Virus genome (UHGV): UHGV-0112872
Origin: a virus
DNA length: 12,499 nt
Reading direction: 5' to 3' (one strand)
In this document: piece by piece, positions 4,455 to 12,499 of the stretch
Position numbering within the stretch: the first letter of the stretch is position 1
How the letters are laid out: each line of letters starts with the position of its first letter
Translations under genes and position numbers: made by a program
The notes under the pieces: model-generated
What the model was told of the DNA's origin: nothing
Databases searched by the model: none
Seen by the model: the letters and a program-made list of their open reading frames with translations, nothing else

Positions 4455-4681
4455 TGGCTGATGCAATGGATCTCGTACAGCAGCGCGTTGAAGAAGAACG
4501 CCAGCGCCATATCCGTGCTGCCCGTGCCAAAACACCGGGCGTGTCTCGCGTGCTTTGCATTGAATGTGAAGCACCAATTCCGCCAGCACGCCGCCGTGCC
4601 ATTCCTGGAGTGCAGCTTTGCATTACCTGTCAGGAAATCGCAGAGCTGAAAGGCAAACATTACAACGGAGGTGCTGTATGA
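4454..4681 (+). CDS. TraR/DksA-family C4 zinc-finger protein
   Basis: 75 aa with paired CxxC motifs (CIECEAPIPPARRRAIPGVQLCITCQ), typical of DksA/TraR-type zinc fingers found in P2-like early regions; AGGAGA upstream. Confidence 0.8.
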   Translation: MADAMDLVQQRVEEERQRHIRAARAKTPGVSRVLCIECEAPIPPARRRAIPGVQLCITCQEIAELKGKHYNGGAV

Positions 4682-5535
4682 GCACCATCCTGAAATGGGC
4701 GGGAAATAAAACCGCAATTATGTCCGAACTGAAAAAATACCTACCTGCTGGCCCGCGACTGGTTGAACCTTTCGCGGGTTCCTGTGCTGTGATGATGGAG
4801 ACGGATTACCCCAGCTATCTGGTTGCGGATATTAATCCTGATTTAATCAACCTCTATAAAAAGATTGCCGCTGATTGCGAGGCGTTTATATCGCGGACCA
4901 GAACTTTGTTTGAGGAAGCAAACAGTGACCTAGCTTATTACAACATAAGGCAGGAGTTTAATTACTCAACTGAAATTACTGATTTCATGAAAGCGGTATA
5001 TTTCCTGTATCTCAATCGTCACGGTTACCGTGGTTTATGTCGCTATAACAAGAGCGGGCATTTCAACATCCCCTACGGTAATTATAAAAATCCGTATTTC
5101 CCTGAAAAAGAAATTCACGCATTTGCAGAAAAGGCCCAGCGAGCAACGTTTATCTGCGCCAGCTTTGATGAAACGCTGGCGATGTTGAAGGCGGGGGATG
5201 TGGTGTATTGCGATCCGCCGTATGACGGCACGTTTTCCGGTTATCACACTGACGGCTTCACTGAAGATGACCAGTATCACCTGGCATCCGTTCTTGAACA
5301 TCGGTCATCAGAAGGACATCCAGTCATTGTTTCTAACAGTGACACATCCCTGATCCGTTCGCTGTATCGCAATTTCACTCACCACTACATCAAGGCAAAA
5401 CGCAGCATCGGCGTGTCAGCTGGCGAGAGTAAATCTGCAACAGAAATCATTGCTGTTTCCGGGTCGCGCTGCTGGATGGGATTTGATCCTTCGCGTGGCG
5501 TGGATAGTTCTGCCGTGTACGGAGTACGTGCATGA
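4678..5535 (+). CDS. dam: Dam-like DNA N6-adenine methyltransferase
   Basis: 285 aa; ATG 4678 overlaps the upstream stop (ATGA). AdoMet-binding motif I ([11 protein letters not shown]) near the N-terminus and catalytic DPPY ([10 protein letters not shown]) downstream, the Dam-type arrangement; N-terminal KWAGNK is Dam-like. Confidence 0.85.
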
Positions 5536-7946
5536 GTCATGCCGATATGAACAACTGCTGCGGCTTTAACGAGGCTGCCGCAGCATTTTCATGGAACGGC
5601 CCGAAAAAGGCCATTAACCCTTATCTGGATCCGGCGGAAGTTGCGCCGGAGTCTGCACTTTCAAACCTGATCACTCTGTACGCTGCCGATAACGAGCAGG
5701 AACAACTGCGCCGCGAGGCACTGAGTGAGCAGGTCTGGGAGCGTTATTTCTTTAATGAATCCCGTGATCCTGTCCAGCGCGAAATGGAGCAGGATAAGCT
5801 CATTAGCCGGGCAAAGCTGGCGCATGAGCAGCAGCGTTTTAACCCGGACATGGTCATTCTGGCAGATGTCAGCGCCCAGCCTTCTCATATCAGCAAGCCG
5901 CTGATGCAACGTATCGAATACTTCAGCAGCCTGGGCAGGCCAAAGGCTTATTCCCGCTATTTGCGTGAGACGATTAAGCCATGTCTGGAGCGACTGGATT
6001 GTGTACGTGACAGTCAGCTATCTGTTTCTTTCCGTTTTATGGCAAGCCATCAAGGGCTGGAGGGGCTGCTGATCCTGCCTGAAATGAGCCAGGATCAGGT
6101 GAAACGCCTGTCCACCCTGGTAGCAGCGCATATGAGCATGTGTCTTGAGGCCGCTTGTGGTGATTTGTACGCCACCGATGACGTTAAGCCAGAAGAAATC
6201 CGCAAGACATGGGAAAAGGTGGCAGCGGAAACCCTGCGTCTGGATGTTATCCCGCCTGCGTTTGAGAAACTTCGTCGGAAAAGAAACCGCCGCAAACCTG
6301 TGCCCTATGAACTCATACCGGGTTCGCTGGCACGTATGCTTTGCGCCGACTGGTGGTATCGAAAATTGTGGAAGATGCGTTGCGAATGGCGGGAAGAGCA
6401 GTTGCGTGCTGTCTGTCTGGTCAGCAAAAAAGCATCTCCCTATGTCAGCTATGAAGCAGTGACGCATAAACGTGAGCAGCGCCGCAAGTCGCTGGAGTTT
6501 TTCCGTTCTCATGAACTGGTGAACGAAGACGGAGACACGCTGGATATGGAAGATGTGGTAAACGCCAGCAGCAGCAACCCGGCACATCGCCGCAATGAGA
6601 TGATGGCCTGCGTTAAAGGTCTGGAGCTTATCGCGGAAATGCGCGGTGACTGCGCCGTTTTCTACACCATCACCTGTCCGTCACGTTTCCATTCCACGCT
6701 CAATAACGGCAGACCAAACCCGACCTGGACAAATGCGACGGTAAGACAAAGCAGTGATTATCTGGTCGGCATGTTTGCTGCATTTCGTAAGGCGATGCAC
6801 AAAGCCGGATTGCGGTGGTATGGCGTGCGGGTGGCTGAGCCGCATCATGACGGTACTGTGCACTGGCATCTCATGTGCTTCATGCGTAAAAAAGACCGCC
6901 GCGCCATCACTGCATTACTGCGTAAGTTTGCCATCCGTGAAGACCGCGAGGAACTGGGCAATAACACGGGGCCACGCTTTAAGTCTGAGCTGATTAACCC
7001 GCGCAAAGGAACGCCGACAAGCTACATCGCGAAATACATCAGTAAGAACATTGACGGGCGTGGTCTGGCTGGCGAGATCAGCAAGGAAACGGGTAAATCC
7101 CTGCGTGATAACGCTGAATACGTTAATGCCTGGGCGTCTCTGCATCGTGTTCAGCAATTCCGCTTCTTTGGCATTCCGGGGCGTCAGGCTTACCGTGAAC
7201 TGCGATTGCTGGCTGGTCAGGCGGCAAGGCAGCAGGGTGACAAAAAAGCAGGTGCGCCGGTACTGGATGATCCGCGTCTTGATGCCATTCTGGCTGCTGC
7301 TGATGCTGGCTGTTTTGCCACCTACATTATGAAGCAGGGCGGCGTGTTGGTTCCCCGCAAATATCACTTGATCAGAACCGCTTATGAAATCAACGAAGAG
7401 CCGACCGCCTATGGTGATCACGGTATTCGTATTTATGGCATCTGGTCACCCATTGCAGAGGGCAAGATCTGCACTCATGCAGTGAAGTGGAAAATGGTTC
7501 GTAAGGCCGTTGACGTTCAGGAGGCGGCAGCCGACCAGGGCGCTTGCGCCCCTTGGACTCGTGGCAATAACTGTCCCCTTGCTGAAAATTTGAACCAACA
7601 AGGGAAAGACAAATCAGCTGATGGGGATACCAGGACGGACATTACCCGCATGGATGACAAGGAGTTGCACGATTACCTGCACAGTATGAGCAAAAAAGAG
7701 CGCCGGGAACTGGCTGCAAGGTTACGCCTGGTGAAACCGAAACGGCGTAAAGACTACAAACAGCGAATTACAGACCATCAGCGACAGCAGCTCGTCTATG
7801 AACTGAAGTCCAGAGGATTTGATGGCAGCGAGAAAGAGGTCGATTTACTCCTTCGCGGCGGCAGTATTCCGTCAGGAGCAGGCCTGCGTATCTTCTATCG
7901 GAACCAGCGTTTGCAGGAAGATGATAAGTGGCGAAACCTGTATTAA
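5532..7946 (+). CDS. A: Replication initiation endonuclease, gene A type (rolling-circle / HUH)
   Basis: 804-aa ORF, ATG 5532 overlapping the dam stop (ATGA) with GGAG upstream. HUH-type metal-binding motif (HWHLMCF) and downstream paired tyrosines (YIAKYISK), as in P2 gpA-family proteins. Confidence 0.9.
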
Positions 7947-8014: not shown

Positions 8015-8058
8015 TTTTACATCAGTAAGATTATTATATACTGTAAATATAAACAGTG
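8015..8058 (+). promoter_or_regulatory. SOS-regulated promoter with LexA box
   Basis: Near-consensus LexA operator TACTGTAAATATAAACAGTG (8039-8058; CTGT-N8-ACAG). It overlaps a candidate -10 TATACT (8037-8042); -35-like TTTACA at 8016-8021. Immediately upstream of the Tum-position gene, as in the 186 SOS operon. Confidence 0.7.
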
Positions 8059-8099: not shown

Positions 8100-8288
8100 A
8101 TGCAGGACTATTTTTTGGAGTCTTTGAAGCTCCAGCGCATTGATTTTTTTCTTAAGCTTGTAGCGGCTAGTGAGTGTAGTGATGAAGAGAAGGGGCTGGC
8201 CCTGCAATGGGTTTCTGAACTAACAGATGAACTCATGGCAAAAATCAGAACCCACGAATACAACCGCTCAATGGATGTCATCAGCTGA
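8100..8288 (+). CDS. Small protein (62 aa) in LexA-controlled operon, occupying the position of the 186 Tum antirepressor
   Basis: ATG 8100 preceded by GGAGGA; first ORF downstream of the LexA box. Identity as a Tum-like antirepressor is positional inference only. Confidence 0.5.
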   Translation: MQDYFLESLKLQRIDFFLKLVAASECSDEEKGLALQWVSELTDELMAKIRTHEYNRSMDVIS

Positions 8289-8298
8289 GGTGACTTTT

Positions 8299-8532
8299 AT
8301 GCGCATTGAAATAATGATCGATAAAGAGCAGAAGATTAGCCAGTCTACCCTGGATGCCCTTGAATCCGAGCTTTACCGCAATCTGCGCCCCCTGTATCCC
8401 AAAACGGTAATTCGTATCCGCAAAGGTAGCTCTAACGGTGTGGAACTGACCGGACTGCAACTGGACGAAGAAAGAAAACAAGTGCTGAAAATTATGCAGA
8501 AGGTGTGGGAAGACGACTGCTGGCTGCATTGA
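8299..8532 (+). CDS. dinI: DinI-family protein
   Basis: 77 aa beginning MRIEIMIDK and ending WEDDCWLH. It aligns by eye with E. coli DinI (MRIEVTIAK ... ETWESADDWF): shared MRIE start, DAL..EL motif, central hydrophobic core, C-terminal acidic W-containing tail. GAGGTGA upstream. Confidence 0.8.
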   Translation: MRIEIMIDKEQKISQSTLDALESELYRNLRPLYPKTVIRIRKGSSNGVELTGLQLDEERKQVLKIMQKVWEDDCWLH

Positions 8533-8668
8533 TAGGTTTCGTTTGTAATGAGTCATGTTTTTTGAGTCCGATAGTAGACAGCTAGAGGGATAAATGATTA
8601 ATAGATAGATTAAACATAGTGATGGGCGTAAAATCGCGCGCATTTTATTGGCAACGGATCTGAACTCA

Positions 8669-9562
8669 ATGGCGGATAAGACTCAATCAGTAAGTATTGT
8701 GTATCAAGGCAAAGCTCTCGACGATCATAAGATGGATATTCTTTCGTTTGCGAAAAGTTTGCAGGGGCTAGGTGAGGCTATCTACTCTGCAAATGAGATT
8801 GTAAACGGAGGGCGAGACATTGAAGTTAACGTTGACGCTGAATTGATAGCCGGTTCCTTTGGGTTTGATATTGAGGTTGTACAACATCTAGCTAATGCTA
8901 AAGATGTTGTACAAATTTTAGGTTTGTCAGCCATTCCTTTAGCCGTTGGCGGTGCTACAGTTTTAGAGGTTCTCAAGAAGCTTAACGGGCGTAAGATCGA
9001 CATAGTCGAGAAAGCTAACGGTAGTGACAAAGTTAAGCTGAAAGTCGATGGTGAAGAGATTGTTTGCTCTGAAGATGTCGAAAAAATCGTTAATGCCCCA
9101 GAGATTCGTAAGGCTGTTGACGCGTTTGTCAGACAGCCTCTGTTACAAGATGGTATCGACAATTTTGTGGTAAAAAAATCGCGCACCTCTAAGAAAGAAA
9201 TCCTCAAAATTCATAAAGATGAGGCAGAAGAGTTTAAGTCGCCAAAAGTTCTCTTTGAAACCAAAGAAGAAGTTGACGAATTTGAAACAACCGTGACATT
9301 CGTTTCGGCGCATACTGACAAAAAAAGTGGCTGGCGTGTTGAGTTTGGCGGTGAAAAGCGCAATGTCAGAATGGAAGATAATGAGTTCATCAAGCTTGTT
9401 ACTGGACCAGACGCCCCCAAAATTTTTGGCGAATTGTTTGCTGTGAAGATGAAGAAAATTGTGAAAGATTCCGGTGGCCAGGTAGACGAAAAGTTATCGA
9501 TCATCAAAGTGGGTCGACACTTTGCCGCCAAAGATAGAAAAATAAAACCTGATGCGGATTAA
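8669..9562 (+). CDS. Cargo module 1, gene 1: uncharacterised 297-aa Lys/Glu/Asp-rich protein with one internal hydrophobic segment
   Basis: Long ORF (ATG 8669; alternative in-frame TTG 8648) in an AT-richer block. Hydrophobic stretch ILGLSAIPLAVGGATVLEVL around residues 85-105, then a long highly charged region. No catalytic motif recognised. Confidence 0.6.
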   Translation: MADKTQSVSIVYQGKALDDHKMDILSFAKSLQGLGEAIYSANEIVNGGRDIEVNVDAELIAGSFGFDIEVVQHLANAKDVVQILGLSAIPLAVGGATVLEVLKKLNGRKIDIVEKANGSDKVKLKVDGEEIVCSEDVEKIVNAPEIRKAVDAFVRQPLLQDGIDNFVVKKSRTSKKEILKIHKDEAEEFKSPKVLFETKEEVDEFETTVTFVSAHTDKKSGWRVEFGGEKRNVRMEDNEFIKLVTGPDAPKIFGELFAVKMKKIVKDSGGQVDEKLSIIKVGRHFAAKDRKIKPDAD

Positions 9563-9564
9563 AA

Positions 9565-9828
9565 ATGTCTATAGATATTAGTGTGTTAGGATGGTTGGGG
9601 CTGCTTGTTGCAGCTCCAGCTATATTTATAGGTGCTAGAGTGGCTATACGTAGCCTGCTCGATCGAGTTATTGTCGAAACAAAAGTTTCTATCACTTATA
9701 CTGATGCAAACAAAAATGTCTATAAAACAAATATTTATATAAACAATGATGATGAGTTAATAAAGCTCATCGATGATATAGCAGAGAAAAATAAGCGTGA
9801 GAGGAAGGAGTCAGCCTCTCATGCCTGA
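9565..9828 (+). CDS. Cargo module 1, gene 2: small single-pass membrane protein (87 aa)
   Basis: ATG 2 nt after the upstream stop (tight coupling); N-terminal hydrophobic helix GWLGLLVAAPAIFIGARVAI followed by a charged soluble tail. Confidence 0.55.
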   Translation: MSIDISVLGWLGLLVAAPAIFIGARVAIRSLLDRVIVETKVSITYTDANKNVYKTNIYINNDDELIKLIDDIAEKNKRERKESASHA

Positions 9829-10237
9829 ACAAAAGAAAACAAGCGGTAAAGCAGTCGGTGTTACAGGTGGCGGCGGTGTAGGCCTTTTCCTAATAAAGCT
9901 GGCTAGCTTCATTACAGATCCAACATGGAAAGACCTTTACATTGCTTCAATACCGATGGTGTCAATTCTTTTAAGCGAAGTTTTTACTTTTGCATGGACG
10001 ATTTATGCTGTTGATCCGCAAGAAATCAAACTGAAAAGGCGGTTGAAGGCTCTGAAGAAGCAAGCCGAAGCAGTTTTAAATGCACCATCGTCCCCTGTTT
10101 CTCCAGAAATGCGAGAGAAAGCGCAGGCTCGTTACGACGTGATCTGTGGAATTGAAATGGGAATTTACCCCCTCTCAATTGTAAATACGCTAGATGGAAA
10201 AGTATCCCCCACAGCGCAAACGCCGGACGTTAAATAG
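9821..10237 (+). CDS. Cargo module 1, gene 3: small two-helix membrane protein (138 aa)
   Basis: ATG 9821 preceded by GGAAGGAG and overlapping the upstream gene by 8 nt. Two hydrophobic segments (GVGLFLIKLASFI; IASIPMVSILLSEVFTFAWTIYAV) followed by a Lys-rich helical tail. Confidence 0.55.
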   Translation: MPEQKKTSGKAVGVTGGGGVGLFLIKLASFITDPTWKDLYIASIPMVSILLSEVFTFAWTIYAVDPQEIKLKRRLKALKKQAEAVLNAPSSPVSPEMREKAQARYDVICGIEMGIYPLSIVNTLDGKVSPTAQTPDVK

Positions 10238-10300
10238 CAGTTTCTACTTTGCATGACTATGCTGCATGAAATCGCATGATCGTTTGAGGATCGTTTTTGC

Positions 10301-10328
10301 AAAAGCCCGCCAGAACTGGCGGGCTTTT
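10301..10328 (+). terminator. Rho-independent terminator closing the right-arm operon
   Basis: GC-rich inverted repeat GCCCGCC (10305-10311) / GGCGGGC (10318-10324) followed by TTTT (10325-10328) and preceded by AAAA. Confidence 0.7.
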
Positions 10329-10373
10329 GCGTAGAGCATGCATCTGCATGAAAACCACTACATAAAGCGGGCA

Positions 10374-10392
10374 GGCGTGGCGGGGATACGAG
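10374..10392. other. Candidate cos site (cohesive-end motif of P2/186-type phages)
   Basis: GGCGTGGCGGGGATACGAG followed by GCGCGCGCT. The first 13 nt match the 186 cohesive end as I recall it (GGCGTGGCGGGGAAAGCAT; P2 is GGCGAGGCGGGGAAAGCAC), and the flanking GCGCGCT resembles the sequence next to the P2 left end. These reference sequences are from memory. Confidence 0.6.
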
Positions 10393-10522
10393 CGCGCGCT
10401 AACTCTTGGCTTTGTTTCATAATCAAAAATGTGATCATTGAGATTATTCTTAAATTTGTGTTTGTCTATGAAATATCATTTCGCTTAACATTGTTTGAGT
10501 TAGGACTACATGAGAATAAAGA

Positions 10523-11098
10523 ATGCTTTTACCCGTAAGTATTACATCGTGTGGCTTGTATCACCCCTACTGGCATTTGGGAGAGCGCAACCCTCATAGC
10601 GATGAACTATCAAGGCAGATGATGGATTTTAAGGATGAAAATAATCGTAATCATCAAAGGGCCATTAACCGTTTTTCTCGATTAGCTATAGATAAGGTTG
10701 GGCGGTTAGTAATCAGAGGTGGCGGTGGGCGTTTTGTTGAGTCTCCTTTTTCGATAGCAGTTGTCCCGTCTCACACTGAAGGCAGAATTTCACCGGCTTT
10801 GATTGAGGTCGCCGAGCGAATCGTAAATGTTCACCGTCGGGGCATTGTTGATTGCTGTTTGGAAAGAACACGCACTGTTCCTAGCGCACATCGTGAAGGT
10901 GGAGATCGCTCAATTACTGGTCACATGTCTAGTATCAGAGTTAGGGGTGGTAACCTCATGGGGCGAAATGTGTTACTACTAGATGATGTTAAAACAACAG
11001 GCGGTAGTTTGTCTGCGTGTTTTTATTTACTGGAGTCTGCAGGAGCTGGAGTTATAATGCCATTAGCTCTGCTAGAAACTGCAAACTATGAGGAGTAG
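10523..11098 (+). CDS. Cargo module 2, gene 1: phosphoribosyltransferase (PRTase, type I) domain protein
   Basis: PRPP-binding signature VLLLDDVKTTGGSL near the C-terminus, the classic type I PRTase motif also seen in ComF-like proteins. Start uncertain: ATG 10523 has a weak RBS; in-frame ATGs at 10619/10622 are alternatives. Confidence 0.7.
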   Translation: MLLPVSITSCGLYHPYWHLGERNPHSDELSRQMMDFKDENNRNHQRAINRFSRLAIDKVGRLVIRGGGGRFVESPFSIAVVPSHTEGRISPALIEVAERIVNVHRRGIVDCCLERTRTVPSAHREGGDRSITGHMSSIRVRGGNLMGRNVLLLDDVKTTGGSLSACFYLLESAGAGVIMPLALLETANYEE

Positions 11099-12062
11099 CA
11101 AAGTGCACTCAGAAGAATTAAAAAATACACTTGGATTAGCTATTCAAATCGGGAAGCTAGCATCTGATCAAAGTGTATTAAAATTCTTTGAGCTTATCGA
11201 TTTTGATGTTATTCGTGATATACGCGACTTAACTGAGATGGTTAATAGCCACGGGTTTCTAAAAGATAAAATATCTGAGACTGATTTTCTAATAGCGAAC
11301 GCTGAATTGGAGAACCACCATGTTAATGGTGTGGAGCTAATACCATATGGGTCTGAATTCTATCCTCTTAGTTTAGCTTTTACTCCTAATCCACCATCAA
11401 TTCTCTACATAAAAGGGGATAAAAGTATACTCAAAGAATTGCCGGGTGTCGCAATTGTAGGATCCCGTGATACCTCCCCTGCAGGGGAAGAAATAACGAG
11501 GCGGATCACTAATCAGATAGTGTCTGCTGGGTATATTGTTGTAAGTGGGTTAGCAATAGGCACTGATGCGAATGCTCACAAGGCAACGTTACAGGCAAAA
11601 GGAAAAACCATTGCTGTCTTGGCGCATGGTCTTGAGGAGGCTAAGCCGAAGCAAAACAGTCGACTTGCTCAAGAGATTCTGGATAAAGGTGGTGCATGGA
11701 TTTCTGAGTATCCTATGGGTCGGCCGGCCCAGAAACAATCATTTGTACAAAGAAATCGGATACAAGTTGGATTATCTGCAGGTTCAATTTTAATCGAGGC
11801 TGCGTTAAATAGCGGAACGATAACTCAAGCTGAGTTTGCAAATAAGGCGAAAAGACCAGTGTTTGCGGTTGTACCTCACCTACCTAATAATCCGCTTAAT
11901 CTTAATTGTGAGGGAACAGTTGATTTAGTTAAGAGCAACATGGCTAGAGCGCTAAAAACAAAACGGGATTATGATGATGTGATTATGATCATAAATGAGT
12001 CCCGGGAGTATTTGTTAGAGCTAAAATGGCCAGGGAAACAGAGTACATTAGACTTGATTTAA
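11088..12062 (+). CDS. Cargo module 2, gene 2: DprA/Smf-like (SLOG / Rossmann-fold DNA-processing-A domain) protein
   Basis: Segments GVAIVGSRDTSPAGEE, VVSGLAIGTDANAHKATL, KTIAVLAHGLEE, SEYPMGRPAQKQSFVQRNRIQVGLS and RPVFAVVPHLP follow the conserved order of DprA/Smf cores. Overlaps the PRTase gene end; an in-frame GTG at 11103 with AGGAG 7 nt upstream is a plausible alternative start. Confidence 0.8.
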   Translation: MRSSKVHSEELKNTLGLAIQIGKLASDQSVLKFFELIDFDVIRDIRDLTEMVNSHGFLKDKISETDFLIANAELENHHVNGVELIPYGSEFYPLSLAFTPNPPSILYIKGDKSILKELPGVAIVGSRDTSPAGEEITRRITNQIVSAGYIVVSGLAIGTDANAHKATLQAKGKTIAVLAHGLEEAKPKQNSRLAQEILDKGGAWISEYPMGRPAQKQSFVQRNRIQVGLSAGSILIEAALNSGTITQAEFANKAKRPVFAVVPHLPNNPLNLNCEGTVDLVKSNMARALKTKRDYDDVIMIINESREYLLELKWPGKQSTLDLI

Positions 12063-12085
12063 AGCGCCTCTTTTAGAGGCACTTT
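12061..12085. terminator. Hairpin between convergent genes, possible bidirectional terminator
   Basis: Stem GCCTC (12066-12070) / GAGGC (12076-12080) with TTTTA loop, extendable with one mismatch, followed by T-rich sequence. Sits in the 24-bp gap between the DprA-like stop and the convergent portal-like stop. Confidence 0.4.
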
Positions 12086-12086
12086 G

Positions 12087-12499
12087 CTAAATTTGATATC
12101 TCTCGAATTTTATAATTTCTTCACCGCTCCAATGATTAAATTCTTTCATTCTTTTTTGTAATGGTAATAATTCATTTTTCACAAATACCTTACTAGCTTT
12201 TTCTACATCCCCAAATCCCCCAACATTATTAGGCATTATCCCCATCATTTGTGGCGGCACACGATGCGCTGCCATCATGTCATCCCGACTCACGTTCTTG
12301 ATGTTAAGAAATTCATCCTTCGCCGCGACTTCTGACAACGGGATGATCTGAAGCCCGTCCTTTTTGCCGTTAGGCGAGTACATAAACAGGTTGCGGAAGT
12401 TGCCAGGGCCTTTGGCGCTTTTCATCGCATTGCGGAGGTTGTTCACATCCTCCTGGTTCTGCGCGGCATCGGTCATGTACATGATGAAGCCTGCATGAC
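12087..12499 (-). CDS. Portal-like protein (P2 gpQ position), C-terminal part; gene continues beyond the window
   Basis: Minus-strand ORF open to the window edge (...PPQMMGIMPNNVGGFGDVEKASKVFVKNELLPLQKRMKEFNHWSGEEIIKFERYQI). Leftward orientation next to cos matches the Q/portal position in P2/186; family assignment is by position and general resemblance only. Confidence 0.55.
   Translation of the reverse strand, partial: HAGFIMYMTDAAQNQEDVNNLRNAMKSAKGPGNFRNLFMYSPNGKKDGLQIIPLSEVAAKDEFLNIKNVSRDDMMAAHRVPPQMMGIMPNNVGGFGDVEKASKVFVKNELLPLQKRMKEFNHWSGEEIIKFERYQI

Follow-up and report, generated by a model that had tools for sequence, protein, structure and literature searches.

A conserved cos-like block between two separately exchanged cassettes in a Fels-2/186-like P2-family prophage

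Does a cohesive-end-like motif that lies far from the portal gene, with accessory genes on either side of it, mark a working packaging site, and would such a position be out of the ordinary for a phage of the P2 family? This question is raised by the viral genome UHGV-0112872, of which we analyzed a stretch of 12,499 nucleotides, referred to here as the window. The window represents the left part of a P2-family prophage, with an integrase-length ORF and an early region located upstream of a Dam methyltransferase gene, and it ends on its right side within the gene for the portal protein. Our analysis indicates, with a probability of roughly 0.9, that positions 10250–10399 form the ordinary, functional cos packaging site of a Fels-2/186-like P2-family (Peduoviridae) prophage. 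The features on which the argument relies are the following.

4618–5535: Dam methyltransferase of the D12 class, directly upstream of gpA and overlapping it
5532–7946, + strand: gpA replication endonuclease (Pfam Phage_GPA, E=3.5e-128), the left anchor of the gpA–gpQ variable region
8227–8532, + strand: DinI/Tum-like gene (Pfam DinI, E=8e-21), the last conserved gene before the A-side cassette
8533–10249, + strand: A-side accessory cassette (module 1), with boundaries taken from pairwise BLAST breakpoints
8648–9562, 9565–9828 and 9797–10237, + strand: ORFs of module 1, the first a PADLOC PDC-S42 candidate
10250–10399, + strand: cos core, a conserved 150-bp block bounded by the breakpoints of both cassettes
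10299–10330, no strand assigned: inverted repeat with perfect 15-bp arms, inside the cos arm and in conserved columns
10374–10392, + strand: 19-nt cohesive-end sequence, unique and homologous to the annotated P2/186 cohesive ends
10400–10522, + strand: leader of module 2, AT-rich, unconserved (about 20–30%) and outside cos
10523–11098, + strand: PRTase (ShosT-like), gene 1 of module 2 (PADLOC ShosT, E=3.7e-14; Pfam Pribosyltran, weak)
11088–12062, + strand: DprA-like protein (ShosA-like), gene 2 of module 2 (Pfam DNA_processg_A, E=1.4e-60; PADLOC ShosA, E=2.8e-70)
12063–12086, no strand assigned: spacer of 24 bp that separates the convergent genes for DprA and the portal protein and contains a small hairpin
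12087–12499, − strand: 3′ part of the portal gene (gpQ/W; Pfam Phage_portal), the right anchor

The cos-like motif that the original prediction had placed at 10374–10392 is real. This 19-mer, GGCGTGGCGGGGATACGAG, is found on the + strand; a search of the window that tolerated up to three mismatches returned this one copy alone, and none of 200 shuffles of the sequence gave a match to it. It is G+C-rich and has the GGCG(A/T)GGCGGGG... form of P2-family cohesive ends, and it is positioned, as in that family, between the side of the replication gene A and the portal gene Q, the latter being encoded on the opposite strand. For alignment to the window, we joined the ends of the P2 and 186 records to restore their circular junctions. 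Compared with the experimentally mapped cohesive ends, the 19-mer is identical at 15/19 positions in 186 and at 14/19 in P2, while the ungapped interval from −37 to +7 around it shows 51/63 (81%) and 45/63 (71%) identical positions, respectively. The similarity to the P2 and 186 cos regions, on which the original prediction depended, is therefore clear. It begins about 125 bp to the left of the 19-mer, continues through GCGCGC and then ends, as the identity to 186/P2 from +8 to +120 on the right (30–31%) is that of background. TGCAT motifs, which are candidate binding repeats for the terminase small subunit, are shared by the window and both phages at offsets of −124/−123, −111 and −29 from the nick; P2 and 186 display an additional TGCAT at −101. 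The window thus resembles these two phages in its 19-nt ends of the type GGCG(A/T)GGCGGGGA..., in the flanking core with GCGCGC after it, in the offsets of the TGCAT motifs and in the placement of cos between the gpA side and the portal gene. P2 and 186 differ from it at the last six positions of the 19-mer, in having their cargo (old/tin; orf97) confined to the A side, and in a portal stop codon located merely 167/176 bp from cos, with a terminator and no gene in between. The record of the Salmonella phage SEN8, in turn, begins with the identical 19-mer, annotated there as “putative cos,” and its last base corresponds to 10373, such that its termini coincide with the predicted nick. By analogy with these phages, the top strand would be nicked before 10374 and the bottom strand after 10392.

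The conserved block has sharp edges on both sides. A blastn search of a phage collection returned 96 records that match the window at 10250–10404 and none further out; the best matches are 90–95% identical and belong to P2-family phages of Escherichia, Klebsiella and Salmonella, including Fels-2 and RE2010. In a per-column profile of prophages from 69 other species, the rise in conservation occurs at 10250, the first ten bases of the 19-mer are 98% conserved, and the values drop to about 25% (20–30%) after 10399. From the gpA side toward the portal gene, the block comprises a 124-bp arm, the 19-nt cohesive-end sequence and a further 7 bp (CGCGCGC), and because the profile over 69 loci has such sharp edges, the functional core is predicted to have just this extent. 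It includes the core, some 55 bp surrounding the cohesive ends, that is conserved among P2-family phages (Ziermann & Calendar 1990, as reported in PMC5694545). The cos interval had originally been drawn from 10301 or 10329 to 10522; the part up to 10399 holds, whereas 10400–10522 has to be given up as the AT-rich, unconserved leader of module 2, and the true block starts at 10250. An ORF of 66 aa that extends across cos (10338–10538) was assumed to be spurious. Within the arm, the inverted repeat at 10299–10330 folds at −31.8 and −27.9 kcal/mol (z about −7.6) and looks like a bidirectional terminator, which probably ends the DinI/module 1 transcript in the manner of t95b, annotated before cos in the 186 record.

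On the portal side of the block, foreign DNA takes the place of the sequence that leads from cos to the terminator and the portal gene. Homology to 186/P2 ends 7 bp past the 19-mer, and from this point a low-GC cargo of 1.69 kb runs to the 24-bp hairpin spacer before the portal stop codon, while the ~140 bp that separate cos from the tQ/tW terminator in P2/186 are missing from the window. The distances in the original prediction are borne out, with 1694 bp from cos to the portal stop (about 1.7 kb had been given) and a gap of 24 bp between the end of the DprA-like ORF at 12062 and the portal stop at 12087–12089. So is the identity of the gene pair in between, on which the Pfam and PADLOC assignments agree. 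A PRTase-domain gene adjacent to a DprA-like (DNA_processg_A) gene, the combination found in ShosTA/DprA-PRTase systems, makes module 2 a candidate ShosTA-like defence cassette, for which an anti-phage function may be proposed from these domain assignments. A scan of the + strand of the leader (10400–10522) for sigma-70 promoters found nothing at a threshold of 9/12. The spacer at 12063–12086 folds at −12.9 and −15.5 kcal/mol (z −3.3 and −4.9), and in these models it is a candidate bidirectional terminator that would stop both convergent transcripts in place of tQ/tW. The GC content is 34% in 11950–12249, the portal 3′ end being AT-rich.

Is a long interval between cos and the portal gene exceptional, as the original prediction implied? 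We compared 80 loci, one genome per species, whose portal genes are 70–90% identical to the fragment in the window. A cos block is present downstream of the portal stop in 71/80 loci, and the distance between the two is bimodal, with 22 loci at ≤300 bp, none at 300–600 bp and 49 at >600 bp (up to 3499 bp). The comparison of spacing in related prophages thus speaks against any unusualness, as the long spacing is the commoner one (49 vs 22) and cargo at this position, present in 49/71 loci, is both the majority state and long published. The 89 portal-side ORFs of the relatives are mutually unrelated (mean column identity 5%), with matches to many defence families, among them PDC-M11A, AbiLi, AriA, Old, bSEFIR, PD-T4-9, TIR and AbiC. 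Their orientation is strongly polar: 81/89 of these ORFs (≥90 aa; loci L005–L084) read from cos toward the portal gene and are convergent with it, like the PRTase/DprA pair. Among the 56 loci for which both distances are available, cargo is found on both sides of cos in 23, on the portal side only in 18, on the A side only in 14 and on neither side in 1. In these 56 loci, the larger the A-side spacer, the smaller the portal-side spacer tends to be (Spearman −0.58, p=3.5e-6, with no phylogenetic correction), and the two spacers together reach a maximum of about 5.1 kb, which suggests that the total cargo is limited by packaging or capsid capacity. Two contigs with portal genes 88–89% identical to that of the window carry labels from other bacterial groups, namely a 4.5-kb contig of a “Bacillota bacterium MAG” (L005, JAEYLX010000057.1), which has the identical cos 19-mer, and a 683-bp contig of “Actinomadura rugatobispora” (L029, NZ_JBHSON010000280.1); both are probably due to contamination or mis-binning of those assemblies.

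These data also bear on whether the site is still in use. The insertion of module 2 could have removed the P2/186 cos-to-tQ spacer and left a defective prophage with a cos that is an unused relic, and both the loss of this spacer (about 140 bp plus the terminator) from the window and the fact that the window shows part of the prophage alone, ending inside the portal gene, would fit such a history. However, 49/71 related prophages of different species lack the spacer and carry cargo while still conserving the 150-bp core, SEN8, in which 2.2 kb separate cos from the portal gene, was recovered as a plaque-forming phage, and the layout is common to Fels-2 and RE2010. We therefore regard a relic as improbable, and the ~140-bp stretch of P2/186 appears, from the comparative data and the viable relatives, to be dispensable. 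A functional cos site remains the preferred reading.

As the original prediction proposed, cargo is present on both sides of cos. The two flanking modules exchange separately, with homology breaking at the edges of the cos block. Module 2 (10405–12086) is found in 23/5426 complete E. coli genomes, reaching 100% identity, and module 1 (8560–10245) in 8/5426, at 100% identity and never alongside module 2. No record among the complete E. coli genomes covers the combined interval of modules 1 and 2, and none of the 1289 E. coli genomes with the same flanks matches the full interval. Strain ECO8855 (L085) has module 2 but another small gene at the A-side position, and module 2, the cos block and the portal fragment are contiguous there at 99.4% identity. 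Conversely, module 1 is present in strains 11899A_LBHALD and 13E0767 (L086 and L087), whose portal-side gene is a small hypothetical one or encodes a DUF262 protein; the former matches the window at 98.6% identity over module 1 and its flanks, and the leader at 10400–10522 has no homology to either strain. All three prophages thus harbor other cassettes among the variable genes between conserved gpA and gpQ, the hotspot of Rousset 2022, and in all three the gene homologous to the fragment in the window is annotated as portal, with the terminase genes next to it. The breakpoints of pairwise BLAST alignments delimit the A-side cassette at 8530/10250 and the portal-side cassette at 10399 and at 12102–12181, in the 3′ end of the portal gene. 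The boundary of the portal-side cassette thus seems to reach into the portal gene, since homology resumes at 12102 or 12181. The portal 3′ end (12087–12250) is 99.4% identical to that of the prophages that share module 2 and 85–92% identical to that of prophages with other portal-side cargo.

That module 2 is instead a mobile element in its own right (a transposon, an integron cassette or a retron-like element) that targeted a cos-proximal site, and did not come in by homologous exchange, is highly improbable, for although the junction is very precise, at 7 bp past the 19-mer in many lineages, is shared in its offset by P4-like satellites, and lies at a site where retrons were the first cargo found, 10400–12086 neither encodes a transposase or integrase nor is flanked by direct or inverted repeats, the cargo families are mutually unrelated, the contiguity with ECO8855 (99.4%) and 11899A_LBHALD (98.6%) fits recombination in shared flanks, and selection on cos explains the sharp junction equally well.

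On the gpA side, the conserved sequence extends to the DinI/Tum-like gene, of which relatives annotate a 234-nt version equivalent to about 8298–8531; homology to the prophage of ECO8855 stops at 8530, and tum occupies the same place in 186. The 304-aa protein of module 1 matches the PADLOC candidate family PDC-S42 (E=7.8e-44), and by this assignment the cassette is an uncharacterised candidate defence module. Its two small ORFs (87 and 146 aa) encode proteins that look hydrophobic by eye. Upstream of both the DinI/Tum-like gene and the small ORF that lies between it and gpA, we found a perfect palindrome similar to a LexA box, CTGTAAATATAAACAG, at 8041–8056, which resembles the LexA-controlled p95 promoter of the SOS operon in 186. 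It is the only exact match in the window, where the loose LexA-box pattern is not enriched (5 found vs 4 expected). Given that module 1 lies on the same strand downstream of CTGTAAATATAAACAG and ahead of the hairpin at 10299–10330, its expression may be SOS-induced, as judged by analogy with 186. The arrangement of the Dam methyltransferase gene directly before gpA is the same in SEN8, and is likewise found in the retron Ec67 prophage (PMC7826664).

The layout of the window is the normal, published organisation of Fels-2-type P2-family phages and is in this sense already known. The Felsduovirus members Fels-2 (NC_010463), RE2010 (HM770079) and SEN8 (NC_047753) have cos blocks 89–92% identical to that of the window and display its gene order, namely gpA, a small ORF, DinI, an optional A-side gene (annotated in Fels-2 and SEN8), the cos block, portal-side cargo (annotated in all three) and the portal gene. 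They differ in the cargo itself, which is STM2726 and STM2723.1 in Fels-2, an AIPR Abi protein in RE2010, and in SEN8 a DNA-binding protein on one side with a hypothetical protein and an HNH endonuclease on the other. Earlier still, the retrons Ec67 and Ec86 were reported between cos and the portal gene of 186-related prophages (Dodd & Egan 1996), as was the ctx cytotoxin cargo of phiCTX (Nakayama 1999), and this literature is credited with proposing the position as a hot spot for extra genes; these cases differ from the window in carrying a retron or a cytotoxin where the window has a ShosTA-like PRTase/DprA pair. More recently, Rousset et al. 2022 (PMC9122126) described gpA–gpQ as a defence hotspot close to cos, for which they give 1,650 arrangements in E. 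coli, and reported a validated DprA+PRTase defence system. Their hotspot corresponds to the same interval with the same kind of cargo, and among their cloned sequences, in which cos is present, pFR109 carries the cos block of the window. The validated system itself (pFR105, from APEC O1) flanks a P2-type cos on its A side and includes a long HAD-PRTase; we rejected its identity with the pair in the window, as the DprA proteins are 36% identical, the PRTase architecture differs and the genes lie on the other side of cos. Two P4-locus clones, pFR83 and pFR86 (Table S2 of Rousset et al.), are near-identical through the 19-mer and TGCGCGCC and then diverge, and the P4 hotspot therefore starts about 8 bp past the cohesive end, at the equivalent of 10399/10400. 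A split of the gpA–gpQ hotspot at cos does not appear in the available text of Rousset 2022 (PMC9122126), which treats it as one hotspot “adjacent to cos,” nor in a 2026 NAR paper on P2/P4 hotspots, where cos is mentioned in the introduction alone.

Based on the homology to P2 and 186, we propose that the phage terminase would recognise 10250–10399 on the circular replicated genome, through contacts with the left arm, and would generate 5′ cohesive ends by staggered nicks 19 nt apart, one before 10374 and one after 10392. The recognition determinants would be asymmetric, with about 124 bp on the gpA side, including the TGCAT motifs and a strong hairpin, followed by the 19-mer and by just 7 bp toward the portal gene. 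Because the determinants would be limited to the right-end arm and these 7 bp, the DNA immediately after the left cohesive end would be free to vary, and both flanks would tolerate accessory DNA because no further sequence is needed on either of them. One cassette site would thus extend from dinI to cos, occupied here by three PDC-S42-like module genes, and the other from cos to the portal stop, occupied here by the ShosTA-like PRTase/DprA pair reading from cos toward the portal gene; recombination would swap the cassettes, with dinI, the cos core and the portal 3′ end serving as conserved anchors. Virion DNA would have module 2 at its left end and module 1 at its right end, an arrangement that the original prediction had put forward and that the P2/186 convention, in which cosL is next to Q/W, supports.

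Compared with the published picture, what is mildly new is quantitative, namely the sharp 150-bp core, the independent assortment, the polarity of the cargo and the negative correlation of sizes. We lean slightly toward viewing the gpA–gpQ “hotspot” as two independently assorting cassette sites, separated by an asymmetric 150-bp cos core that would double as a recombination anchor. The portal-side site would start 7–8 bp past the cohesive end, match the position of the P4-satellite hotspot and be strongly polar, and the sizes of the two sites would trade off as if limited by the capsid. Such a view is at most a quantitative refinement, as both sites were already named separately in the older literature.

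The locus therefore matters little as a discovery, since its layout is standard and its cargo position was described decades ago. Its value is practical: the cos core is fixed at 10250–10399 and the virion ends are predicted, and the prophage has two separate candidate defence cassettes, one PDC-S42-like and one ShosTA-like PRTase/DprA. Surveys of the gpA–gpQ hotspot could divide it at cos to follow cassette exchange on each side.
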